NCBI GenBank assembly: GCA_964586975.1
Contig: CAZPJV010000002.1
Coordinates: 1-45,218, forward strand
Origin: an uncultured Candidatus Saccharibacteria bacterium
GTDB taxonomy: Bacteria; Patescibacteriota; Minisyncoccia; Phycocordibacterales; UBA9973
Reading direction: 5' to 3'
Length of the DNA: 45,218 nucleotides
Shown here: positions 7,104 through 40,486 of the stretch, piece after piece
How the letters are laid out: each line of letters opens with the position of its first letter
How positions within the stretch are numbered: position 1 is the first letter of the stretch
Notes under the pieces: generated by a model
The model's input: only the letters and a program-made list of their open reading frames with translations
Told to the model about the DNA's origin: nothing
Database searches by the model: none
Made by a program: the position numbers and the translations under genes

Positions 7104-8255
7104 ATGAGAATTTTAAGCATTGAAACGAGTTGCGACGAAACCAGTATCGCAGTTATGAAAGCCACGGGCGGTATAACCGATGCTTCGTTCAGAGTGCTGG
7201 CGCATGAAATTTCTTCGCAGGCGGCAATGCACTCTCCTTTCGGCGGGGTTTACCCCTCGCTGGCCAAACGCGAGCATATAAAAAATCTTCCTCTACTTCT
7301 TAATAAAATCCTGAAAAAATTAAAAACTAAAAAAATTGACTTGATTGCGGTCACTTCCGGCCCGGGACTGGAACCGGCATTATGGACCGGCATAGTTTTT
7401 GCGCAGGAACTCGCCAGAAAATGGAAGGTGCCCTTGATACCGGTAAATCATATGGAAGGGCATATCTTTTCTACTTTTGCTAAGGCGGAAAAAAAATTCC
7501 AAATTCCCAATGCCAAATTCCCAATGCTTGCCCTGCTAGTTTCCGGCGGACACACCCAACTCGTGCTTTCAAACCGGTGGCTCAACTATAAAATAATCGG
7601 CGAGACGCTGGATGACGCGGTCGGCGAGGCCTATGACAAGGTTGCGCGGATGCTCGGCTTGCCCTACCCCGGCGGGCCGGAAATTTCAAAGTTAGCGGAG
7701 CAGCTAAGGGCAGAGGGAAAACAATTTTTACGGGGTGTCTCGCAGGCCGACGGGCCGAGAGGCAGCGCTCCGCGAGCACGCGGAGACAGCGACCCCGCAA
7801 AGATTGGTTTTCCCATAGCCCTCCCCCGCCCGATGCTCAAGAGCAAAAATTTTAATTTTTCATATTCTGGGCTAAAAACCGCAGTGCTTTATTTAATAAA
7901 AAAAATTAGCAAATTGGATAAAAAAACCAAAGCGCAAATCGCTCTGGAGTTTGAAAATGCGGCGATTGAATGCCTGACCTATAAAACCGCCCGGGCGATA
8001 GAAAAATATAAAATTAAAACTCTGGTAGTCGGCGGCGGAGTTTCCGCCAACACGCATTTAAAAAGAGAAATCACCCGCCTTCGCCAAGGCTTCGGACGGG
8101 CAAGAAAAAATCTCAAAATTTTCTTTCCGCCGAAAGAACTAACGGGCGACAACGCGCTGATGATAGGCATCGCCGGTTATCTAAATTATTTGAAAAATAA
8201 GAAAAAAGTTCCAAAACCGGAAAGCATAAAAGCGGATGGAAATTTGAGCTTATAG
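7104..8255 (+). CDS. tsaD: tRNA N6-adenosine threonylcarbamoyltransferase TsaD
   Basis: MRILSIETSCDETS start, and the HMEGH, GGHT and GGGVSAN motifs. The ORF-track start at 7089 (TTG) lies in the tRNA-like fragment, so I prefer ATG 7104. It contains an in-frame insertion of about 25 aa before the PRPM motif. Confidence 0.9.
   Translation: MRILSIETSCDETSIAVMKATGGITDASFRVLAHEISSQAAMHSPFGGVYPSLAKREHIKNLPLLLNKILKKLKTKKIDLIAVTSGPGLEPALWTGIVFAQELARKWKVPLIPVNHMEGHIFSTFAKAEKKFQIPNAKFPMLALLVSGGHTQLVLSNRWLNYKIIGETLDDAVGEAYDKVARMLGLPYPGGPEISKLAEQLRAEGKQFLRGVSQADGPRGSAPRARGDSDPAKIGFPIALPRPMLKSKNFNFSYSGLKTAVLYLIKKISKLDKKTKAQIALEFENAAIECLTYKTARAIEKYKIKTLVVGGGVSANTHLKREITRLRQGFGRARKNLKIFFPPKELTGDNALMIGIAGYLNYLKNKKKVPKPESIKADGNLSL
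7728..7801. repeat. GC-rich imperfect palindrome inserted in frame in tsaD
   Basis: Arms TTACGGGGTGTCTCGC and GCGGAGACAGCGACCCCGCAA. It encodes LRGVSQADGPRGSAPRARGDSDPAK, which is absent from E. coli TsaD between GGP..L and FPRPM. Confidence 0.6.
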
Positions 8256-8272
8256 TATGGTATTATTAGGGT

Positions 8273-10525
8273 ATGCTGGACAAACTCAAGAAGCCCTACG
8301 AGCCCCAAAATACCGAAGACAGAATTTACAAGCTCTGGGAAGAGAGCGGTTTTTTCCAGCCCGAGGCTGGTACGCCTTGGGTGCATGCGCCCGAAACTAA
8401 TCTGAATCATGGGAAAACTTTTTCTATCGTTCTGCCCCCGCCTAATGCAACCGGCGTGCTTCACCTCGGCCACACCCTTGAAGTTTCTATGCAGGACACG
8501 ATGATTCGCTACGCGCGCATGCGAGGCAAAAAAACGCTGTGGCTTCCCGGCACCGACCACGCCGCCATCGCCACCGACACCAAAGTGACGAAAATGCTGG
8601 AGAAAGAAGGTCTCCAGAAAAAAGACATCGGGCGGGAAAAATTCTTGGAGCGCGTGGACGCTTTTGTGACTGAAAGCAGAAAAACTATCGTCAGTCAGCT
8701 CCGTAAAATGGGCGCATCTTTGGACTGGTCGCGGGAAGCCTTCACCCTAGACGAACAACGAAATCTGGCCGTCCGCACCGCGTTTAAAAAAATGTATGAG
8801 GACGGGCTAATCTATCGCGGAAATAGAATCGTGAACTGGGACCCCAAGGGCCAAACGGTAATCTCGGATGATGAAATAGTGTATGAAGAAAGAAAAAGCA
8901 AGTTTTATACTTTTAAATACGGTCCGTTTGAAATCGGCACCGCCCGGCCGGAAACGAAATTCGGTGATAAATATGTGGTGATGCATCCGGACGACCCGCG
9001 GTATAAAAAATGGAAGCAGGGAGACAAATTGACGGTGGAGTGGATTAACGGCCCGATTGTAGCGACCATCATTAAGGATGAAATGATTGATATGGAATTC
9101 GGCACCGGGGTCATGACCATTACCCCTTGGCATTCGCATGAAGATTTTGCTCTGGCGGAAAAATATAAACTGAATAAAGAACAAATCATAGACCACCATG
9201 GCAAGCTCCTGCCTATAGCGCAGGAATTCGCCAGCATGAAAATCGCGGAGGCGCGCGAAAAAATTGTTGAAAAATTGAAAGACAAAGGCCTGCTGGTTTC
9301 GGTGGACGAAAATTATATGAACCGAGTGGCTACCGCGGAGCGCACCGGCGGCATGGTGGAACCGCAGATAATGTTGCAATGGTTCGTGGACGTGAATAAA
9401 AAAATCCCTGCGCGGAGCAACCAGTCTCTGAAAGAATTGATGCTGGAGCCGGTGCGGGAAGGTCGGATAAAAATTATGCCGGAGCATTTTGAAAAAGTTT
9501 ATTTTAATTGGATAGAAAATCTGCGGGACTGGTGCATTTCCCGCCAAATCTGGTACGGCCACCGGATTCCGGTGTGGTATCACGAACCTAAATGCGTTCC
9601 CATCCCGGGACGGGAAAAGGAAATAGAAAAATGCGAGGAAATAGTTGTGGGCGAAGGAACCGAAAAATGCCCGCATTGCGACGCCAAATATTTTCAAGAT
9701 GAAGATACGCTGGACACTTGGTTTTCTGCCGGGCTGTGGACTTTTTCCACTCTGGGCTGGCCCGCCTCCGTCAAGACTACGGCGGGTAAACCCAAAAAAA
9801 CTGGGGACTTAGCCCAATTTCATCCAACTAATGTAATTAACCCCGGCTATGAAATTCTTTTTTTCTGGGTGGCGCGAATGATTTTAATGTCGCAGTATTT
9901 GCTCGGAGAAATTCCCTTTGAGACAGTGTATCTCCACGGCATACTCCGCGATTCTAAAGGGCGCAAGTTTTCCAAATCGCTGGACAACGGCGTGGACCCG
10001 CTGGAAATCATCAGGCAATACGGCGCGGATGCCCTGCGCATGTCCATGATAGTGGGCATCGGCCCCGGCGCGGACAGTAAGTTTGATATTCAGAAAGTAA
10101 AAGCTTACAGCAAGTTCGCCAACAAAATTTGGAACGCGGCGCGATTTGTACTGGAAAATACCAAGAATTTTGCGCCTCCGGAAAAACCAATCTATGATGC
10201 AGAAGATAAAAAATCAGACGAGGAATTAAGGGCGCTGATGGGAGAGATTACCGAAGAAATGGACGGGTATAAATTTTACATCGTGGCGGAGAAACTGTAT
10301 CATTATTTCTGGCATACTTTCGCCGATATTATCATTGAGCGTTCCAAAAAGAAAATACAGGAAAATAAAAACGCGGACTCGGCGCGAGTGCTTCTTTTGT
10401 CCCAGCTCACCACTCTGCTGAAAGCTTTGCATCCCTTTATGCCTTTCATTACCGAAGAAATCTGGTCGATGCAAAATAAAAGTTTGTTAATGACAGAACC
10501 ATGGCCTTACCCGGCGGAGATTTAA
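8273..10525 (+). CDS. valS: Valine--tRNA ligase
   Basis: PPPNATGVLHLGH (HIGH region), KFSKSLDN (KMSKS), and the CP1 editing segment TARPET...GTGVMTITPWH. At 750 aa it lacks the C-terminal coiled coil. Confidence 0.92.
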   Translation: MLDKLKKPYEPQNTEDRIYKLWEESGFFQPEAGTPWVHAPETNLNHGKTFSIVLPPPNATGVLHLGHTLEVSMQDTMIRYARMRGKKTLWLPGTDHAAIATDTKVTKMLEKEGLQKKDIGREKFLERVDAFVTESRKTIVSQLRKMGASLDWSREAFTLDEQRNLAVRTAFKKMYEDGLIYRGNRIVNWDPKGQTVISDDEIVYEERKSKFYTFKYGPFEIGTARPETKFGDKYVVMHPDDPRYKKWKQGDKLTVEWINGPIVATIIKDEMIDMEFGTGVMTITPWHSHEDFALAEKYKLNKEQIIDHHGKLLPIAQEFASMKIAEAREKIVEKLKDKGLLVSVDENYMNRVATAERTGGMVEPQIMLQWFVDVNKKIPARSNQSLKELMLEPVREGRIKIMPEHFEKVYFNWIENLRDWCISRQIWYGHRIPVWYHEPKCVPIPGREKEIEKCEEIVVGEGTEKCPHCDAKYFQDEDTLDTWFSAGLWTFSTLGWPASVKTTAGKPKKTGDLAQFHPTNVINPGYEILFFWVARMILMSQYLLGEIPFETVYLHGILRDSKGRKFSKSLDNGVDPLEIIRQYGADALRMSMIVGIGPGADSKFDIQKVKAYSKFANKIWNAARFVLENTKNFAPPEKPIYDAEDKKSDEELRALMGEITEEMDGYKFYIVAEKLYHYFWHTFADIIIERSKKKIQENKNADSARVLLLSQLTTLLKALHPFMPFITEEIWSMQNKSLLMTEPWPYPAEI
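9761..9786. repeat. CCCGCC...GGCGGG hairpin, in frame in valS
   Basis: CCCGCC-TCCGTCAAGACTAC-GGCGGG. It encodes part of ASVKTTAGKPKKTG, which is extra relative to the E. coli ValS GWPE...FHPT segment. Confidence 0.55.
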
Positions 10526-21834: not shown

Positions 21835-21942
21835 ATGCTTTTCAATAAAAAACATCAAAAGAAAATTCAGGTTGTCTGGGCAGTGCTGTCCGTCCTGATT
21901 ATAGTCTCAATGATTCTGCTCTACGCGCCCATCTTCCGCTAA
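21835..21942 (+). CDS. Possible 35-aa membrane micro-protein (not in ORF track)
   Basis: MLFNKKHQKKIQVVWAVLSVLIIVSMILLYAPIFR has a basic N-terminus followed by one TM helix. An extended -10 TGtTATAAT (21818-21826) lies 8 nt upstream of the ATG. Confidence 0.35.
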   Translation: MLFNKKHQKKIQVVWAVLSVLIIVSMILLYAPIFR

Positions 21943-23789
21943 CGATTCTGGGAACGCATCATTTTGAGAAATACGTCTTGGGGAATATTTATTTTGCCCT
22001 TGGCTTTCATGCGAGCCTTGCCCCTCTTCTGCTTTTCCAAAAGTTTTTTCTTGCGGCTGACATCGCCGCCGCCGACTACTTTGGAACCATGCATCAGCAC
22101 ATCTTTGCGGAAGGCGGCAACAGTTTCCGAGGCGATTATCCGGCCCAAGGCTTTGCCCTGAACTTTGAAGGCGAATTGTTGTCTCGGAATCACTTTTTGC
22201 AGCCGTTCCACCTGGGCTCGGGCTTCTTCTTCCACTCTGCGCCGCGAAATTATCCGGCAGAATGCCGGCATGGGTTCGTCTGCTACCAGAATGTCCAGCC
22301 GCGCCACATCCGCTTCTTTATACTCAGCCAGTTCGTACGCAATGGAAGCATAACCGGAAGTTATGCTTTTTAAGTCATCAAAAAAATTGCGCATCAGCTC
22401 CCGGAGCGGCATTTCCAGGCTGATGGACGAGCGGTTATCGCCGAAGTTCTCGGCGGTGTGAACTATCGCCTCGTGGTCAAACAGAAAAGGCATCAGCAGG
22501 CTGGCGTAGGTTTGCGGAGTAATTATTTTTACTTTGACCCACGGCTCGTAGACCCTGCCAATCTGTCCGTCTTCGGGGAAAAAGTGCGGGGAATAAATTA
22601 TTTCCTCCTTCCCGTTTTTTAATATCACTTTATAATTTATGGAAGGTGTAGTTATCACCAAACGCATATTAAATTCTCTCTTCAGGCGCTCGGTAATTAT
22701 TTCCAGATGGAGCATTCCTAAAAATCCGCAACGAAAACCTTTGCCTAAGGCTCCGGAAGATTCTTCTTCATAAGAAAACGCCGAGTCCGACAGCCGCAGT
22801 TTGCCCAAAGCCAATTTGAGAGACGGAAAATCGTCGGCGTCTTCGGGATATACGGACGCCCAGACTACGGGCTTGGGATTCAGGTAGCCGGGCAGAGCGG
22901 GAGCAGGTTTTTTATTTAAAGTTATGGTATCGCCCACCGAAGCGATACCGGGCTTCCTGATGCCGGTAACGATATAGCCTATCTCGCCGGCGGTTATGGA
23001 ATTTTTGGGAGATTCAACCGGCGCAAACACACCCACTTCCAGGGCAATGAATTTTTCTCCCGAAACGGCGAAGACCAGCGCGTCGCCCTTTTTTATTTCC
23101 CCGCCGAAGACCCGCACATAGACAATCACTCCGCGATGATTGTCATATTTGAAATCAAAAACGAGCGCTTGTACCCCTTCCTGTCCTCCCCCTACGTAGG
23201 GGGAGGTGCCCTGAGTTTGTCGAAGGGCGGAGGGGGTAGGCGGCGGCACTTTTTCAATAATTTTCCCGAGCAGATTTTCCACACCTTCGCCTGTCTTGCC
23301 GGAAACTTCCAGAACCGCGTCCGGGTCTAGGTTGAGAAGCACCGCCGCTTCCATTTTAACTTCCTCAATTCTTGCGAGCGGCGAATCAATTTTAGACACC
23401 ACCGGTATTATTTTCAGTCCATTGTCCTGCGCCATTTGGAGCGTAGTCAGTGTCTGCGCCTGCACGCCTTGAGTAGAATCCACCAGTAGAATGGAACCCT
23501 CCACCGCCTTGAGCGCGCGGGAAACCTCGTAAGAGAAATCTATGTGGCCGGGAGTGTCTATCAGGTTAAGCACGTATGCTTCACCGCCTATTTCATACTC
23601 CATGCGAACGGGTTGCATTTTTATGGTAATGCCCCGCTCCCGTTCCAGCTCCATGGAGTCCAGCACCTGCTCGCGCATTTTGCGGGCTTCAATGGTATGC
23701 GTAATTTCCAGCAGGCGGTCCGCTAGGGTGGATTTCCCGTGGTCAATATGCGCGATGATACTAAAGTTGCGTATGTTTTCTAATTTCAT
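21939..23789 (-). CDS. lepA: Elongation factor 4 (LepA), with an in-frame insertion of about 20 aa
   Basis: G motifs AHIDHGKST, DTPGH and SKID, plus the LepA C-terminal domain. It has extra residues SALRQTQGTSPYVGGGQEG between PPP and the LQAL(V/I)FD segment. Confidence 0.92.
   Translation of the reverse strand: MKLENIRNFSIIAHIDHGKSTLADRLLEITHTIEARKMREQVLDSMELERERGITIKMQPVRMEYEIGGEAYVLNLIDTPGHIDFSYEVSRALKAVEGSILLVDSTQGVQAQTLTTLQMAQDNGLKIIPVVSKIDSPLARIEEVKMEAAVLLNLDPDAVLEVSGKTGEGVENLLGKIIEKVPPPTPSALRQTQGTSPYVGGGQEGVQALVFDFKYDNHRGVIVYVRVFGGEIKKGDALVFAVSGEKFIALEVGVFAPVESPKNSITAGEIGYIVTGIRKPGIASVGDTITLNKKPAPALPGYLNPKPVVWASVYPEDADDFPSLKLALGKLRLSDSAFSYEEESSGALGKGFRCGFLGMLHLEIITERLKREFNMRLVITTPSINYKVILKNGKEEIIYSPHFFPEDGQIGRVYEPWVKVKIITPQTYASLLMPFLFDHEAIVHTAENFGDNRSSISLEMPLRELMRNFFDDLKSITSGYASIAYELAEYKEADVARLDILVADEPMPAFCRIISRRRVEEEARAQVERLQKVIPRQQFAFKVQGKALGRIIASETVAAFRKDVLMHGSKVVGGGDVSRKKKLLEKQKRGKARMKAKGKINIPQDVFLKMMRSQNR
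23173..23240. repeat. TIR-family palindromic element, in frame in lepA
   Basis: The left arm ACCCCTTCCTGTCCTCCCC closely matches the leuS copy (ACCCCTCCCTGTCCCTCCCC at 29817). The right arm is GGAGGGGGTAGG. The core contains the perfect 22-nt palindrome CCTCCCCCTACGTAGGGGGAGG (23185-23206). Confidence 0.7.
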
Positions 23790-29350: not shown

Positions 29351-32300
29351 TTATAAAACTATATTGATAAGCCTGCCCGGCACATAAATAACTTTCTTGA
29401 TATTTTTGCCGGCGATATGCTTGATGGCTGTTTCGTTGGCCAGAGCTTGTATTTTAACCTTTTCTGCCGGGGCTTCCGCGCTTATCACAATTTCCGCCCG
29501 AACTTTGCCGTTAACCTGCACCGCGATTTTTATTTCCTCATCTTTTATTAAATTTCTGTCCCATTTGGGCCATATTGAAAGACTGATAGATTTTTTCTCG
29601 CCGAGCCCTTGCCAAAGTTCTTCGGCGATGTGGGGAGCAAAGGGCGAAAGAATTTGCAAGAACATTTTAAAATCTTTAATTGAAATCCACTGCGCCCGTT
29701 CCATCTCCGTTGCTAAAATCATCATGGCTGAAATTGCGGTATTGAAACGCATATTTTCTATATCTTCCGTAACTTTTTTAATGGTTTTGTGAAGAATTTT
29801 TTTTAAGGTCAAATCCACCCCTCCCTGTCCCTCCCCAAAGGAGAGGGTTATTCCCCCTCTTTTGGAGGGGGTTAGGGGGAGGTGAAGAATTTTCTGCCCT
29901 ATTTTCCACACTCGTTCCAAAAACCTTCGCGGGCCGACTATCGCCTCTTCGCTCCAGGCAATCGCCTGGTCAAAAGGGCCCATGAACATTTCATAAAGCC
30001 GCAGGGTGTCGGCGCCGTATCTTTTCACGATATCGTCGGGATTAATCACATTGCCGCGTGACTTGGACATTTTTTCACCGCCTTCAGCCAAAATCAGCCC
30101 GTGCGAGGTGCGCTTTTTATATGGCTCACTCGTGGGCACCAATTTCAAATCATACAAAAACTTGTGCCAAAAGCGCGAATAAAGCAGGTGGAGCGTAGTG
30201 TGTTCGTTGCCGCCGTTGTACCAGTCAACCCCTCCCTGGCCCTCCCCCAAGGAGAGGGAATTTTTGTTCCCCTTCCTTGGGAAGGGGTTAGGGGTAGGTC
30301 CAAGCCAGTATTTCAAATTTTTCTTTGAGGCAAACTCTTTACTATTTTGGGGGTTAGCATATCGTAAATAATACCAAGAACTCCCCGCCCAGTTAGGCAT
30401 GGTATCCGTTTCGCGTCTGGCAGGACCTTTGCATTTCGGACATTTGGTATTTACCCATTTGGAAATATTTGCCAAAGGTGACTCGCCTGTTTCTGTCGGC
30501 TGATAATTTTTAATTTTCGGCAAAAGAACCGGCAAATCTTTTTCCGGTACCGGCACCCAAGTATTTGAGCAAGGACTACCCTTGCTCACGCAGAAAACTA
30601 CCGGTATCGGCTCCCCCCAATATCTCTGCCGGGAAAAGACCCAGTCCCGCAGTTTGAAAGTTGTCTTTTCCCTGCCGCCGACAAATCTTACGATTTCCCT
30701 TTTCACTTTTTCAGAATCCATGCCGTCGAATTTGCCGGAATTGGCGAGAATTCCTTCGCCGGTATAAACCTGTTCCTGCCCCTGCAAAATATGCCAGTCG
30801 CGCAGAGAACCTTCAATGTTCATAATTCTTTCTAACTCCGGTTTGGTAACCCAGATTAATTCATGTTTTTCTTTTTCGTCCGGAGTAAGTTCTTTCTGTT
30901 CCCCATTTTTTAATTCAAAATAAAAATTGGAGAAATGCGCGAAACGATTTTCTTTCTTGGGCACGTGGTAAAACTTGCTGTGTGAGCGCGGCAGTTCTTT
31001 CAGTAACTTAAAATTCTGATAGCCGGTTTCTTCCCTGATTTCGCGTTCAACTGCTTGGAGCGGTGTTTCTCCTTCATCTACACCACCCGTTATAAATGTT
31101 ACCCAATCAACTTTTTTCCATTTCAAAACCAAATATTTGTCCTCCGAACAATGCTTTAATATCGCATGTACTGCTTCCCGTTCCACGAACGGCAAATCTT
31201 CTCTAGGATTATCAAAAAAGGTCGGCTCAATTACATTTTTAATCGGCAAACTGTATTTTTTCGCAAATTCAAAATCGCGTTCGTCATGCGCCGGCACAGC
31301 CATAATCGCGCTGGTGCCATAGTCATAAGACACATAGTTCACAACCCATACAGGAATCTCTTCGCCATTCGCAGGATTGATGGCTCGGAGGCCAGTATCT
31401 TTTCCTATTTTTTCCCCGCCTGCCATCGCCTGCGGCTTCAGGCCGTGGCGGGCAGGCTTATTTTCCTCTGATTTTACACCAAAGTCACTGCCCGCTAGTT
31501 TCTTCGCGACCTCCGGAGCAATCGCCAAATAAGTCGCTCCGAAAATCGTGTCCGGGCGAGTGGTGAAAACTTTAATGCCCAATTCAACCTCTCCCTGGCC
31601 CTCTCCCAAGGAGAGGGGGTAATCCGGAAGAGTTTCCAATTTTTTATTTATCCTCCTTATTACATCTGCTAAGTTTTCTAAAACTTCCTCATTTGAAAAT
31701 CGGAGAATGGTATAACCAAGTGTTTCCAGCCGATTGATCCTTTCGGCATCTCTTTCTCTCTGATAATTATGAACACCCCCCTCAATTTCTATAACCAAGT
31801 TTTTCGGAAGACAAAGAAAGTCCACAATAAAATGATCAATTATATGCTGTCTTCTGAAATGATATCTCTGTTTGTTCGCTTTTAGCGCTTCCCATAATTT
31901 CCTTTCAGCTTGAGTGGGGTTCTTTCTCATTTCTAATGCTTTCTCAAAAAGTTCCTTATATACTTCAGCATCAGTGGTGACATAACCCGGCAATGCCCCC
32001 CTTCCTTGGGAAGGGGCTGGGGGTAGGTCTGGGGTTAGGTTCTTTATTTTAAATTCTATCTCTGCCCCCTCGGACTTCCCTATCCAATTTCTTTGCGCAA
32101 GTTTTATGTGCGGCAAGTAGTCCACGGTATCTAAATCTTTATCTAACCTTTCCGCATATTTAGTAATCCCCAGCATCCACTGCTCTTTTTCTTTTTTTTC
32201 CACCGGCGTGCCGCAACGTTCGCAAGCGCCACCCACAACCTCTTCATTGGCCAAACCGATTTTACAGGACGGGCACCAATTAATCGGAATTTTTGCTTTG

Positions 32301-32749
32301 TAAGCCAAACCTTTTTTCAAAAATTGCAAAAATATCCACTGCGTCCACTTGTAGTATTTCGGATCAGTGGTATTTATTTCCCGCGACCAGTCAAAAGAAA
32401 TTCCCAGGGATTTTATCTGCTGGCGGAAAGTATCGCTATTTTTTTTAGTAACCACCCGAGGGTCTTGACCGGTCTTGATGGCGTAGTTTTCCGTCGGCAA
32501 ACCAAACGCGTCCCAACCGATGGGGTAAAGCACATTAAAACCTTCCATCCTTTTTTTTCTGGAAATCACATCCATCCCGATATACGGCCGCGGATGTCCC
32601 ACATGCAACCCGTCGCCGGAAGGATAAGGAAACTCAATCAAGCTGTAATATTTAGGTTGTTTTGATAGATCTTTGGCTTGAAAAACCTTCTTTTCCTCCC
32701 AAATTTTCTGCCACTTTCGTTCCAACCCCAAATGCTCATATTCTTTCAT
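29351..32749 (-). CDS. leuS: Leucine--tRNA ligase carrying five in-frame insertions (three TIR elements, one with a DUF559 domain; one hairpin element; one Nudix domain)
   Basis: HIGH (GDGLHVGHP), KMSKS (KMSKSRGN), CP1 editing motifs (TTRPDTIFGATY, GTSAIMAVPAHDERDFEFA), RDWVFSRQRYWGEPIP, and GGNEHTTLHLLYSRFW. At 1132 aa it is much longer than the roughly 860 aa of E. coli LeuRS. Confidence 0.95.
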   Translation of the reverse strand: MKEYEHLGLERKWQKIWEEKKVFQAKDLSKQPKYYSLIEFPYPSGDGLHVGHPRPYIGMDVISRKKRMEGFNVLYPIGWDAFGLPTENYAIKTGQDPRVVTKKNSDTFRQQIKSLGISFDWSREINTTDPKYYKWTQWIFLQFLKKGLAYKAKIPINWCPSCKIGLANEEVVGGACERCGTPVEKKEKEQWMLGITKYAERLDKDLDTVDYLPHIKLAQRNWIGKSEGAEIEFKIKNLTPDLPPAPSQGRGALPGYVTTDAEVYKELFEKALEMRKNPTQAERKLWEALKANKQRYHFRRQHIIDHFIVDFLCLPKNLVIEIEGGVHNYQRERDAERINRLETLGYTILRFSNEEVLENLADVIRRINKKLETLPDYPLSLGEGQGEVELGIKVFTTRPDTIFGATYLAIAPEVAKKLAGSDFGVKSEENKPARHGLKPQAMAGGEKIGKDTGLRAINPANGEEIPVWVVNYVSYDYGTSAIMAVPAHDERDFEFAKKYSLPIKNVIEPTFFDNPREDLPFVEREAVHAILKHCSEDKYLVLKWKKVDWVTFITGGVDEGETPLQAVEREIREETGYQNFKLLKELPRSHSKFYHVPKKENRFAHFSNFYFELKNGEQKELTPDEKEKHELIWVTKPELERIMNIEGSLRDWHILQGQEQVYTGEGILANSGKFDGMDSEKVKREIVRFVGGREKTTFKLRDWVFSRQRYWGEPIPVVFCVSKGSPCSNTWVPVPEKDLPVLLPKIKNYQPTETGESPLANISKWVNTKCPKCKGPARRETDTMPNWAGSSWYYLRYANPQNSKEFASKKNLKYWLGPTPNPFPRKGNKNSLSLGEGQGGVDWYNGGNEHTTLHLLYSRFWHKFLYDLKLVPTSEPYKKRTSHGLILAEGGEKMSKSRGNVINPDDIVKRYGADTLRLYEMFMGPFDQAIAWSEEAIVGPRRFLERVWKIGQKILHLPLTPSKRGGITLSFGEGQGGVDLTLKKILHKTIKKVTEDIENMRFNTAISAMMILATEMERAQWISIKDFKMFLQILSPFAPHIAEELWQGLGEKKSISLSIWPKWDRNLIKDEEIKIAVQVNGKVRAEIVISAEAPAEKVKIQALANETAIKHIAGKNIKKVIYVPGRLINIVL
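29816..29884. repeat. TIR-family palindromic element (cargo-less, 69 bp), in frame in leuS
   Basis: CACCCCTCCCTGTCCCTCCCCAAAGGAGAGGG-TTATT-CCCCCTCTTTTGGAGGGGGTTAGGGGGAGGTG. It encodes LTPSKRGGITLSFGEGQGGV. Confidence 0.85.
30227..30299. repeat. TIR-family palindromic element (cargo-less), in frame in leuS
   Basis: AACCCCTCCCTGGCCCTCCCCCAAGGAGAGGG-AATTTTTGTT-CCCCTTCCTTGGGAAGGGGTTAGGGGTAGGT. It encodes PTPNPFPRKGNKNSLSLGEGQGG immediately before VDWYNGGNEH. Confidence 0.85.
30800..31190 (-). other. Nudix hydrolase domain embedded in LeuRS
   Basis: GGVDEGETPLQAVEREIREETGY (31019-31087) fits the Nudix box GX5EX7REUXEEXGU at every position. Flanking beta-strand-like segments (AVHAILKH..YLVLKW; FYFEL; LIWVT) complete a domain of about 130 aa that E. 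coli LeuRS lacks at this point. Confidence 0.85.
31414..31457. repeat. CTGCCCGCC hairpin element, in frame in leuS CP1
   Basis: On the minus strand it reads GCCTGCCCGCC-ACGGCCTGAAGCCGCAGGCGAT-GGCAGGCGGGG and encodes KPARHGLKPQAMAGGEK. The murJ copy encodes a similar MPARQLAGGDGEK. Confidence 0.6.
31586..32040. mobile_element. TIR-bounded element carrying a DUF559 (Vsr-like) endonuclease domain, in frame in leuS
   Basis: The arm 31586-31620 and the reverse complement of 31996-32028 match at 25 of 33 positions. The interior encodes PTQAERKLWEALK...FRRQHIIDHFIVDFLCLPKNLVIEIEGGVH...RDAERINRLETLGYTILRFSNEEV, which is the DUF559 hallmark pattern. Boundaries are approximate. Confidence 0.8.
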
Positions 32750-34209: not shown

Positions 34210-35093
34210 ATCAAGAACTCTATCACGTCGCCGTCTTGGACGATATAGTCCTTGCCTTCCGTGCGGAGCCAGCCCTTTTCGCGCGCGCGGGCTTTGGAAC
34301 CCGCTTCCATAAGTTTGTCATAGGTAATGACCTCGGCGCGGATGAATTTGTCGCGGAAATCGGTGTGGATGGATTTGCCGGCTTCCGGCGCCGTGGCACC
34401 CCGCTTGGTAGTCCAAGCTCGGGTTTCATCTTCACCGGTGGTTAAAAAAGTAATCAAACCCAGCAAATCGTAGCCAGCCTGAATCAGCTTGTCCAAACCG
34501 GTGCCGAAAACCGGGTCAACTATCAGATACGGCGTGGGGATTTTTGATAAAAAATCCCCACGCCTTCGAACAATCTCCCCCTGTGAAGCCTGCCCGCCTT
34601 CAGCGTTCGGGCGGGGGGGAGTGCCGAAGGCAAGGGGGTCTTCAATCACGGAATTATTTAGTACATACAAGGTCGGTTTTTTTATTCCCGCTAATTCCAA
34701 TTCCATATTAATTACTTCAATATCAAACAGCGGGTCAATTTTTTCGTGCACGTGAATGGTGTTGGGGTCCTCAAAAATTCTTACCACTTCAATAATCGCG
34801 TCCACTTCGCGGATATGCGAAAGGAATTTATTGCCGAGTCCCGCGCCTTCGCTGGCACCCTTGACTAAACCCGCAATATCCACAAATTCCACCACTGCAG
34901 GGATTTTTTTCTTGGATTTGGAGAGTTCGGCGAGCCGATCCACCCGTTCATCCGGCACGGGCACAATGCCCACCGACGGGTCAATGGTGCAAAAGGGATA
35001 ATTCTCCGCCGGTACCCCTTTTTTCGTGAGTGCGTTAAAAAGCGTGGACTTGCCGACATTCGGCAGACCGACAATGCCAATGGATAAAGACAT
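34206..35093 (-). CDS. ychF: Ribosome-binding ATPase YchF (short form) with an in-frame palindromic insertion
   Basis: P-loop GIVGLPNVGKSTLFNALT, DIAGLVKGAS, and the C-terminal TGS-like end YIVQDGDVIEF. Confidence 0.88.
   Translation of the reverse strand: MSLSIGIVGLPNVGKSTLFNALTKKGVPAENYPFCTIDPSVGIVPVPDERVDRLAELSKSKKKIPAVVEFVDIAGLVKGASEGAGLGNKFLSHIREVDAIIEVVRIFEDPNTIHVHEKIDPLFDIEVINMELELAGIKKPTLYVLNNSVIEDPLAFGTPPRPNAEGGQASQGEIVRRRGDFLSKIPTPYLIVDPVFGTGLDKLIQAGYDLLGLITFLTTGEDETRAWTTKRGATAPEAGKSIHTDFRDKFIRAEVITYDKLMEAGSKARAREKGWLRTEGKDYIVQDGDVIEFLI
34531..34564. repeat. Perfect 34-nt palindrome in frame in ychF
   Basis: GGCGTGGGGATTTTT-GAT-AAAAATCCCCACGCC, encoding RRGDFLSKIPTP. Confidence 0.8.
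34588..34618. repeat. CTGCCCGCC hairpin element in frame in ychF (opposite orientation to the host gene)
   Basis: GCCTGCCCGCC-TTCAGCGTTC-GGGCGGGGGG nested within CCTTCG...CGAAGG. It encodes PPRPNAEGGQASQ. Confidence 0.6.
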
Positions 35094-38389: not shown

Positions 38390-40486
38390 TTATTTTAACA
38401 CCGTCCGTTTTAGCAGTAAAGCGTTAAAGGCGACGATGACCGTGCTGGCGGACATCAGCACTGCCGCGAAAGCCGGCTCCAGGATTATATTTTTCCAAGC
38501 GAGCGCGCCGGCCGCCAAGGGCAGGGCGAAAATATTGTAGCCCGCCGCCCACCAGAGATTTTGAATCATTTTGGAGTAAGTCATTTTGGACAGCCGGATT
38601 ATTTTCACGATGTCCCGCGGGTCGTTGCGCACTAAAATTATGCCCGCCGACTCAATAGCGACATTGGTGCCCGCACCGATAGCGATACCGAGGTCCGCCT
38701 GTGTTAGCGCTGGCGCGTCATTAATGCCGTCGCCCACCATCGCGACTTTGAGCCCGCGACTTTGTAGCTCTCTTACTTTTTCGGATTTCTCGTGCGGCAA
38801 TACGCGGGCGAAGAATTCTTCAATGCCAAGCTCCCGGCTCACAACCCTGGCCACTTCGGCGGAATCGCCGGTAATCATCACCGGCTTGATGCCGAGAGCT
38901 TTGAGTTTCGCCACGGCTTCCGCCGCTTCCGGCCGTGCCGTATCCGCAACTTCTATCTCGCCTATTTTTACGCCGTCCGCTTCCACTATAATTTGCGCGC
39001 CGCCGCGGTGGCCGACGAAAACTTTTTTGCTTGCCCCTAGCGCAGTCGTGGAGCCTTCAATTTCCGCTTCGCCGCCCACGCCGGGAATGCGTTTAAAGTT
39101 TTTAGATGGAAGTATAGACAATTTTAACTCCCCCGCTTTCTCAACTATGCTTTTCGCAATCGGATGTTCAGAATGCGCATCCACCGCGGCGGCTAGACGC
39201 AGAGTTTCCTCCGAGGAATATGCCGTAACGCTAAATTGACCTCGGGTGAGTGTCCCAGTTTTATCAAAAAGTACCGCACCTACACTGCGCGCCGCTTCCA
39301 AAGCCAACCGTTGTTTAACCAGAAAGCCGTTGTGCGCCGCCTTGGTAGTGGAAATGGAAGCGACCAATGGCACCGCCAGCCCCAGCGCGTGCGGGCAAGC
39401 AATCACGAGCACTGCCACCAGACGCGAAACAGCGAAAGCGACTTCCGCGCCGGCCAAAAGCCAGGCGACAAAAGTGATGGCGCCGCCGGCCACTGCGACT
39501 ATAGTCAGAAGAAACGCCGCCTTGTCCGAGAGTATCTGCAAGCGCGACTTGGAAGCCTGCGCCTCCGCCACCAGACGCATGACGCCGGCGAGAAAAGTCT
39601 TTTCGCCTATGTTGGTAACTTTTATTTTGAGCGAACCGTCTCCCGTAATGGTGCCGGCAATCACGCTGTCATTTTCTTTTTTAAATACCGGCCGCGATTC
39701 GCCGGTCATCATGGATTCGTTGATATCGGATTGTCCTTCGGTTATCAAGCCGTCCGCCGGAATCTTGCCGCCCGGCCGCACCAAGACCACATCACCTTCT
39801 TTCAACTCCGAAATCTCTATGGTTTCTGTTTTGCTTGTCCCGAGTTTAGTCGAGGGATCATTCCTAATTACTTCCGCCGTATCCGGCAGAAGTTTGGATA
39901 GCTCCTTGAGCGCGCCCTGCGCGCCGGACACCGCCCGCATTTCCAGCCAGTGGCCCAAAAGCATAATGGTGATAAGCGTGGTCAGTTCCCAAAACAGCGC
40001 TTCTTCGCCCGCAAAAACAGCATAGACACTCCAGATGTACGCGGCAGAAATAGCGATAGCGATTAGCGTCATCATGCCCGGCAGTCTGCCTTTGATTTCT
40101 CTCCAGGCACTGGCTAAGAAAACCCAGCCGCCATAGAAAAACACCAGCGAGCCGAACACGAGCGGCATGTATGCTAAACCGGGAAATCCTGGCAATGACC
40201 ACTTGAAAATAGTTTTAAAAACATCCGCGTAAAGCACCACCGGAATTGTAAGAAGCAAGCTGACCCAGAATTTGCGCAAAAACATTTTCGTGCTATGTCC
40301 AGCGTGCTTGTCCGCCGAAGCCTTGGCGGAGGCGGATTTGCCGTGACTAGGTTTCATTTTCACCAGCGCCATGCCGCACTCCGGACACATGCCCGGCCGC
40401 TCCTGCCTGATTTCCGGATGCATTGGGCAGGTGTAAATTATTTTTCCGTCTTCTTGTGTTATGTGATGATTGTGTTCCATATCCAT
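38390..40486 (-). CDS. copB: Copper-translocating P1B-type ATPase (CPH motif, CopB-like) with an N-terminal Cys4 metal-binding motif
   Basis: TGES (MTGESRPV), CPH in TM6 ([11 protein letters not shown]), [16 protein letters not shown]-terminal [24 protein letters not shown]. Confidence 0.9.

Follow-up and report, generated by a model that had tools for sequence, protein, structure and literature searches.

In the 45,218-nucleotide stretch of DNA analyzed here (positions 1 to 45,218 of contig CAZPJV010000002.1, assembly GCA_964586975.1, from an uncultured Candidatus Saccharibacteria bacterium; hereafter, the window), the leuS gene for leucyl-tRNA synthetase (LeuRS) contains a 72-nt palindromic segment, copy B, which stands in frame just ahead of a motif of the catalytic core. 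Copy B is probably a non-autonomous miniature, comparable to MITEs (inverted-repeat transposable elements of miniature size), of a selfish family whose full-length members carry a DUF559 nuclease domain, and it is probably translated with the enzyme and retained in it. A sister copy with such a domain (copy C) and a second cargo-less copy (copy A) are found in the same gene, and the features on which the argument is built are the following.

29351-32749, minus strand: leuS open reading frame (ORF; LeuRS, 1132 aa), host of copies A, B and C, of an inserted NUDIX domain and of one unrelated palindrome
30228-30299, minus strand: copy B, cargo-less two-hairpin element, 72 nt in register with the other copies
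30269-30299, plus-strand coordinates: left end of copy B in coding orientation
30259-30268: spacer of copy B, 10 nt, AACAAAAATT
30228-30258: right end of copy B in coding orientation
31587-32028, minus strand: copy C, 442 nt (LeuRS residues about 241-389), same inverted-repeat ends and a 376-nt cargo
29817-29883, minus strand: copy A, cargo-less, 67 nt, encoding LPLTPSKRGGITLSFGEGQGG (residues 957-977)

A cargo-less element and its nuclease-bearing sister in leuS

The LeuRS that the leuS ORF encodes has a catalytic domain of class I, an editing domain and an anticodon-binding domain, and its nearest relatives are those of Paceibacteria/Nomurabacteria (Patescibacteria, the Candidate Phyla Radiation, CPR). 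A preliminary description of this DNA, made from the letters and a list of ORFs, had reported a cargo-less element with terminal inverted repeats in this gene. The 73 bases that it quoted are exactly window positions 30227-30299 of the plus strand, in frame on the minus strand within the LeuRS ORF, and in the left flank that it gave the G after YWL was left out (the actual sequence is YWLG).

Read in coding orientation, copy B is bounded by ACCT...GGGGT. Its arms are imperfect inverted repeats of 27 nt, 74% complementary and with 6 nt between them, and its two 31-nt ends are complementary to each other at 21 of 31 positions, the RNA folding at -48 kcal/mol (z = -2.9 versus shuffled sequences). 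The left end of each leuS copy consists of ACCTMCCCCYAR and then an 8-bp stem-loop, CCCCTTCC-CAA-GGAAGGGG, and the right end is its inverted form, CCCTCTCC-TTG-GGRGAGGG and then CCAGGGAGRGGT, in such a way that each 31-nt end contains its own 8-bp stem-loop. These ends are essentially stop-free whichever frame is read; in copies A and B four of the six frames are open. The arm motifs were found three times in the window, against an expectation of 0.01-0.02.

The terminal inverted repeats are borne out by copy C, located 1.3 kb away, since both its left and its right ends are identical to those of copy B at 29 of 31 positions. The right end of copy A, which lies in the hypervariable linker preceding the anticodon-binding domain, also matches that of copy B at 29 of 31 positions. 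The cargo of copy C is a DUF559 domain (Vsr-like PD-(D/E)XK; PF04480, E 1.3e-30; PDB 3hrl, E 2.7e-19), with matches limited to the DUF559/MTES_1575 nuclease families and none to a recognized transposase. It is in the LeuRS frame, the only one open across the 442 nt, and has neither start nor stop of its own, so that it can only be made by read-through from the host gene. At the left end of copy C the terminal 12-mer is tandemly duplicated (32017-32040, minus strand: ACCTAACCCCAG ACCTACCCCCAG).

Orthologs with an empty site

Judged from an alignment of 120 Paceibacteria LeuRS homologs, copy B is an insertion and not a native loop of the enzyme. A majority of these proteins have an empty site, KYWTPVDW (KYWTPVDWYNGG), and one of them has an empty YWLGV allele (KYWLGVDW). 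Extra residues between YW and VDW are present in about 45 of the 120, and about 13 contain full-length relatives of copy B (e.g. P0002, P0014, P0071 and P0088). Others have shortened forms, such as SPQPSPERRGENTGG, which keeps a left end, a recurrent 7-residue insert (LGNDPxxGG), or, at the same codon, palindromic inserts of at least two unrelated kinds (VDPVRSR...SNG and SPKQGEGGTGG). At the DNA level the empty alleles read TGG ACT CCA GTG GAC and TGG CTT GGG GTA GAT (empty-site sequences TGGACTCCAGTGGAC and TGGCTTGGGGTAGAT) and the window reads TGG CTT GG[69 nt]G GTT GAC, a net gain of 69 nt or 23 codons with respect to the empty YWLGV allele. The sequence of the Thermus thermophilus LeuRS structure (1h3n) is likewise uninterrupted at this place (AWMP-VDQYIGGVEH), and in every ortholog carrying the insert its frame is open and its length a multiple of three.

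That the segment is a native, lineage-specific loop of LeuRS, palindromic by chance, is hardly credible. A subset of orthologs does have a short loop here (LGNDPxxGG), but most orthologs are empty at the site, and the 31-nt ends are met with again at other places of the gene and in several phyla.

Occupied and empty sites are intermingled on a rough neighbor-joining tree (875 conserved columns, no support values), which suggests recurrent gain and loss of the insert at the site of copy B. The alignment also showed that insertions in LeuRS accumulate at hot spots, namely positions 234, 261, 545, 633, about 754 and about 842 (P0058 numbering). Copy C occupies position 234, copy B position 633 and copy A about position 754, and sites 234 and 633 of this conserved gene are recurrently occupied, with relatives that have empty alleles.

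Position in the enzyme and predicted structure

The peptide of copy B corresponds to LeuRS residues 818-840 (PTPN...GQGG, 23 residues, then Val), preceded by KYWLG and followed by the Val-initial stretch VDWYNGG.... In the alignment to T. thermophilus LeuRS it falls between P531 and V532 (W529-M530-P531 before), 5-9 residues ahead of G537-G538-V-E540-H541, so the catalytic-core motif that had been placed just downstream of the element is indeed there. In the LeuRS literature (Cusack et al. 2000) the G537-G538-x-E540-H541 residues are reported to line the leucyl-adenylate pocket and to have a catalytic role.

An AlphaFold2 model of LeuRS, built from a 108-sequence alignment, had a mean predicted local distance difference test score (pLDDT) of 83.2, and only segments 239-258, 378-388, 430-444, 819-837 and 960-975 scored below 50. 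These are the peptides from the repeat ends of copy C, from the unrelated palindrome, from copy B and from copy A. Residues 819-837 have no secondary structure in the model and adjoin the confidently placed strand 841-847 (VDWYNGG) and helix 848-867, so that the copy B peptide is predicted to be a Pro/Gly-rich and probably disordered loop of 23 residues. The DUF559 domain folds independently in the model, and comparison with solved bacterial LeuRS structures gave template modeling (TM) scores of 0.73-0.80 (normalized by target), the LeuRS fold being kept.

Distribution of the repeat family

An exact-pattern scan was carried out with the 31-nt right-end motif (CCCTCTCC-NNN-GGRGAGGG-NNN-GGGAGRGGT) on one genome per species (species representatives). 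It gave at least 120 loci, with 130 matches among those listed, versus roughly 0.02 expected by our estimate. The matches listed are mostly from Bacteroidota (Paludibacter, Mucilaginibacter, Chitinophaga, Taibaiella, Prevotellaceae), and others come from Ignavibacteria, Kapabacteria, Dormibacteraeota, Saccharibacteria, Paceibacterota and Nomurabacteria. A partner left end was found upstream, at 2-130 nt or at 360-590 nt, for 29 of the 130, and among the long forms so defined eight of nine contain DUF559, seven of them with a frame that is uninterrupted over the whole element. Five of these end-to-end open long forms have LeuRS as host (Chitinophagaceae L042, Paludibacter L048 and L108, Flavobacteriales L072 and Paceibacterota L076) and occupy the short stretch that links SEGAEIxF to VFTTRPDT, which also houses copy C. 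Short and DUF559-bearing forms share their ends in other phyla as well. One copy, from Prevotellaceae (L078), is free-standing: it has an ATG and a stop codon of its own.

Long ORFs contain 31 of the 130 listed copies. Their hosts, according to Pfam, include LeuRS, PheS, MetH (with DUF559), IcmF-like methylmalonyl-CoA mutase, adenylate cyclase, LepA, DXS, RecG, pectinesterase and CobW. One mirror-equivalent frame (xLSPxLSxGEG or LSxGEGxGxV) is used by 22 of these 31 copies (binomial p = 2e-5, orthologous cases not being fully independent), a bias as expected from selection on a translated peptide.

An exhaustive profile-free search with the cargo retrieved 20,593 relatives. Among the best 150 of them, 62 are proteins of at least 280 aa with the domain embedded, 75 Pfam families are represented (LeuRS 8, GT2 6, Type ISP 5, DegT 4, MetH 3, SpoIIE 3), and many of the embedded domains are flanked by related Pro/Gly peptides. 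A strict metagenome scan with the left end of the CPR subfamily gave 17 loci, which include an IleRS-like host and are otherwise mostly LeuRS (site 234 or 633).

Some further arrangements were recorded in these scans. The 31-nt motif is abundant in Bacteroidota genomes, most copies of the scan (L005-L124) are intergenic and without a nearby partner end, and identical repeat-plus-flank units recur inside contigs (e.g. L018, L058, L065 and L090). An IleRS-like ORF, on a metagenome contig (L144:13056-13086), has two adjoining palindrome-coded segments, PSPSPKGEGWGEV and PLPLEGAGGRS, just before WTTTPWTL. In two LeuRS orthologs (L001:3381-6905 and L127:501-4559) the cargo between the same ends at site 234 is DUF559 preceded by an alpha/beta (Ser) hydrolase domain, and in L127 the right-end coding segment near the VFTTRPDT junction is partly doubled (FGEGLGGV FGEGLGGV). 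Other LeuRS homologs have PF10706 or PF01725 as cargo at site 234. Judging by these cargoes, the element seems capable of bringing passenger domains into LeuRS.

Read-through versus removal

The preliminary description left two options for the insert: a surface loop that the enzyme tolerates, or a segment removed from the RNA or the protein. The predicted disorder of residues 819-837 favors the first, and the second found no support. For copy B there was no Rfam family at the gathering threshold, but only sub-threshold hairpin look-alikes, with no group I/II intron or ribozyme. No Hint/intein Pfam match was detected in LeuRS, and the insert has no N-terminal Cys/Ser/Thr, no C-terminal His-Asn and no downstream Cys/Ser/Thr. 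With no intron, intein or bypass features, with a sister element whose cargo depends on read-through, and with the frame bias of the in-ORF copies, the sequence evidence favors that copy B is translated by read-through and tolerated, and disfavors its removal.

An intervening sequence, taken out by RNA excision, skipped by ribosomal bypass of the T4 gene 60 type between GGA codons, or lost by protein splicing, is accordingly very improbable. The identical GGA codons flanking the insert (30299-30301; 30233-35), with a stable hairpin between them, and the proximity of the active site could be read in its favor, but no Rfam intron or ribozyme family was matched, and the DUF559 cargo of the related element, without its own start, is expressible only by read-through. 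In addition, a segment of 23 residues with Pro first, Gly last and Val next cannot form an intein. The bypass in particular was rejected, the GGA...GGA pair being present but with no stop after the first GGA and with an open gap that is a multiple of three in all orthologs. A role of copy B as an intrinsic terminator or promoter was also rejected, no such site being present at the element.

Constraint on the nucleotides

When 4-5 orthologous copies were compared, identity at third codon positions was 41-54% in the flanking codons and 86% within the arms, the element as a whole was 80-83% identical, and its four-fold degenerate Gly/Pro codons remained GGG/CCC. The constraint therefore acts on the nucleotides (hairpin and repeat ends) and not on the peptide. 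It fits recognition by an enzyme, homogenization among copies or recent re-insertion, and a function for the host is not thereby implied.

Such a function would follow if the element had been exapted, in such a way that a strong mRNA hairpin (about -44 kcal/mol) or the peptide loop served the host, for instance by making translation pause while the protein folds, by an effect on mRNA stability or as a new interaction surface. The high third-position identity of the arms with respect to the flanking codons and the folding of all full-length ortholog copies at -44 to -50 kcal/mol are in line with it. We consider it improbable, as most orthologs are without the insert and in others what stands at this site has decayed or is unrelated, disorder is predicted for the peptide, and constraint at the level of the element, gene conversion or recent re-insertion explain the nucleotide conservation equally well.

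A model for the element and its main rival

Under the preferred reading of copy B as a MITE-like miniature, it would have arisen by cargo loss and entered leuS where a loop can accommodate additional residues. It would be transcribed and translated with leuS as a loop just upstream of the beta-strand bearing the GG-x-EH motif, and would not be removed. Its survival would be due to three things: its ends are stop-free, the length that it adds is a multiple of three, and in an essential enzyme purifying selection spares only insertions at permissive surface sites. Mobility would come from a nuclease-induced break and its repair (homing-like) or from transposition in trans. A full-length element would be expressed within its host protein, the nuclease domain would break the empty target or act on the repeat hairpins, repair would copy the element, and cargo-less copies like B would be mobilized in trans or produced by cargo loss. 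In a wider and more tentative proposal, which we hold to be possible and no better than that, the elements would form an undescribed cross-phylum class of non-splicing in-frame homing elements, with a DUF559 gene that lies between hairpin inverted repeats, lacks a promoter, start and stop of its own and is expressed only inside essential host proteins (LeuRS, MetH and others), and with MITE-like coding palindromes such as copy B left behind.

Several observations weigh against these readings. In LeuRS, the points at which DUF559 elements are inserted in Bacteroidota and in Patescibacteria are a few codons apart, and therefore the shared site may reflect selection for a permissive linker and not sequence-specific homing. 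Strict cross-phylum homing to one leuS nucleotide was rejected on the same ground. Copies A, B and C have no direct repeat in common in their flanking sequences, a clear target-site duplication was not seen there, and the junction of copy B is ambiguous within GG/GGGGT runs. A comparison of five occupied or decayed and two empty sites left the boundaries ambiguous as well. The resident DUF559 (31628-31990, minus strand; LeuRS residues about 297-330) reads EIEGGVH, and its closest relative, P0002, reads EIEGDVH, versus an E-x-D-G motif (E-[IV]-D-G) in 109 of 109 DUF559 representatives and 21 of 23 LeuRS-embedded copies. The nuclease may thus be degenerate and inactive, and with the invariant Asp changed to Glu the local copies may be fossils. 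Recent mobility in the CPR lineage is not supported by the strict metagenome scan, which recovered mainly LeuRS copies at the same two sites. The tree that suggests gain and loss is a neighbor-joining one without support values, and the translation of copy B is something that we infer.

In addition, among 134 motif matches (the 130 listed and 4 more in four LeuRS ortholog loci) no more than 4 have DUF559 directly beside them; the repeat that came first may be the hairpin, with the nuclease as a later guest. This is a serious rival: a 45-72 nt hairpin would be an independent repeat, similar to repetitive extragenic palindromes (REPs), that spreads alone or by means of an unlinked enzyme, with DUF559 homing into it later and copy B representing the ancestral form. 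Hairpin-only copies are far commoner, single-palindrome forms exist, and a different cargo (the hydrolase plus DUF559 of L001 and L127) is found between the same ends, all of which it accommodates. It is in our view rather unlikely, having in mind that the ends of the cargo form are inverted copies with inverted loops (CAA, TTG) and not a direct duplication of a target hairpin, that the same cargo family is present in eight of nine long forms, and that related Pro/Gly peptides flank DUF559 in many hosts.

Comparison with known systems

Rickettsia palindromic elements (RPEs) are described as palindromic repeats in frame in unrelated housekeeping genes, including RNA-processing and translation genes, where they are translated into additional peptide segments that the host fold accommodates, and also as intergenic repeats (Ogata 2000, 2002; PMC10969869). 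They are about 100-150 bp long, restricted to Rickettsia and CGTC-tagged (PMC3733652, PMC10969869). The family described here resembles them in that a short palindrome stands in frame in functional ORFs, its extra peptide being compatible with the host fold (here, as predicted), and in that it is also intergenic. It differs in its 45-72 nt, its ACCT...AGGT ends, its presence in Patescibacteria, Bacteroidota and other phyla, and its full-length DUF559 members. To our knowledge RPEs have no autonomous partner, and we know of no account that settles how in-frame palindromes move.

With REPs and their associated tyrosine transposases (RAYTs) the family shares small G+C-rich stem-loops that are mostly intergenic, with some inside ORFs, including those of tRNA synthetase genes, as was also reported for intragenic REPs (Di Nocera et al. 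2013, PMC3733652). Here, in contrast, the ends are ACCT...AGGT, with no GTAG or CGTC tag, and the only protein between repeats in the 45-kb window is DUF559, in the host frame, whereas RAYT is a Y1 HUH transposase flanked by REPs. The likeness to MITEs lies in the multiple copies and in the terminal inverted repeats common to a longer coding form and to a short form without coding capacity of its own. Unlike in MITEs, the cargo is no known transposase, a target-site duplication is not recognizable at the ambiguous junctions, and the parent is over its whole length an open frame continuous with that of the host.

DUF559 is a member of the Vsr clade of PD-(D/E)XK nucleases, together with a proven group I intron homing endonuclease, I-Bth0305I (PMC3424549, PMC2677866, PMC3239194). 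Like homing endonucleases, nucleases of the Vsr/DUF559 clade are here found in conserved essential genes, with presence or absence at fixed sites and with degenerate and nuclease-less forms; as with inteins, the element stands in frame and would be expressed by way of the gene that hosts it. It departs from both in having no self-splicing intron or Hint domain, with an insert that apparently stays, and in being bounded by hairpin inverted repeats, the nuclease activity being only predicted. In a literature coverage that was incomplete, no published account was found in which DUF559 lies between hairpin repeats and is joined in frame to host proteins, nor one of this family among CPR palindromes, and the DUF559-partnered repeat family is apparently undescribed and widespread.

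Taken alone, copy B adds one more case to a phenomenon already known, that of palindromic repeats translated within essential genes (translated, that is, if the frame is read as we suppose), and its place beside the active site and its nuclease-bearing sibling in the same gene make it more interesting. Miniature and nuclease-bearing copies with near-identical ends occur in one gene, and the pairing recurs in LeuRS and in other housekeeping genes of Bacteroidota and Patescibacteria, and therefore the mobility of in-frame palindromes becomes testable. If the in-frame homing class is real, it would supply the first identified autonomous partner for protein-coding palindromes, with RPEs as their classic case. 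The element family would also account for some of the puzzling inserted domains and loops of low complexity that CPR proteins show. The copies also map permissive insertion sites beside the LeuRS active site, and they are a warning for annotation, in that the G+C-rich Pro/Gly stretches of these proteins would be mobile DNA and not host innovations.

Other segments of leuS and of the window

A single-palindrome relative of the family was located outside leuS, and the same architecture was found in L114:

23800-23846, intergenic: single-palindrome relative, ACCTCACCCCTTCGCCCCTCTCCTTAATAAGGAGAGGGGTTGGGGAGAGGT

The inserted NUDIX hydrolase domain of LeuRS (PF00293, E 1.2e-14; 30833-31111, minus strand, residues 547-639) follows the editing domain, is found in most of the 120 Paceibacteria homologs and is predicted with pLDDT above 90. 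The leucine-specific domain before the KMSKS loop, present in the T. thermophilus and E. coli enzymes, is missing here (residues 889-893 versus T. thermophilus 580-637). The unrelated leuS palindrome (31408-31468, minus strand) encodes KPARHGLKPQAMAGGEK, with pLDDT below 50.

A scan of GC content for more elements was too noisy at the 48% GC of the window, and its results are leads only. A LepA-like ORF (21939-23789) has an in-frame G+C-rich palindrome at 23162-23252 (minus strand), which encodes TPSALRQTQGTSPYVGGGQEGV between VPPP and QALVFD and finishes like the leuS element (...GQEGV). In-frame Pro/Gly/Ala/Arg-rich palindromes of other families, to which the unrelated leuS palindrome also belongs, were found in a YchF-like ORF (34556-34652, minus strand), a TsaD-like ORF (7724-7832, plus strand), a P-type ATPase-like ORF (40289-40352, minus strand) and a ValRS-like ORF (9725-9795, plus strand), in such a way that the genome seems riddled with putatively translated palindromes.

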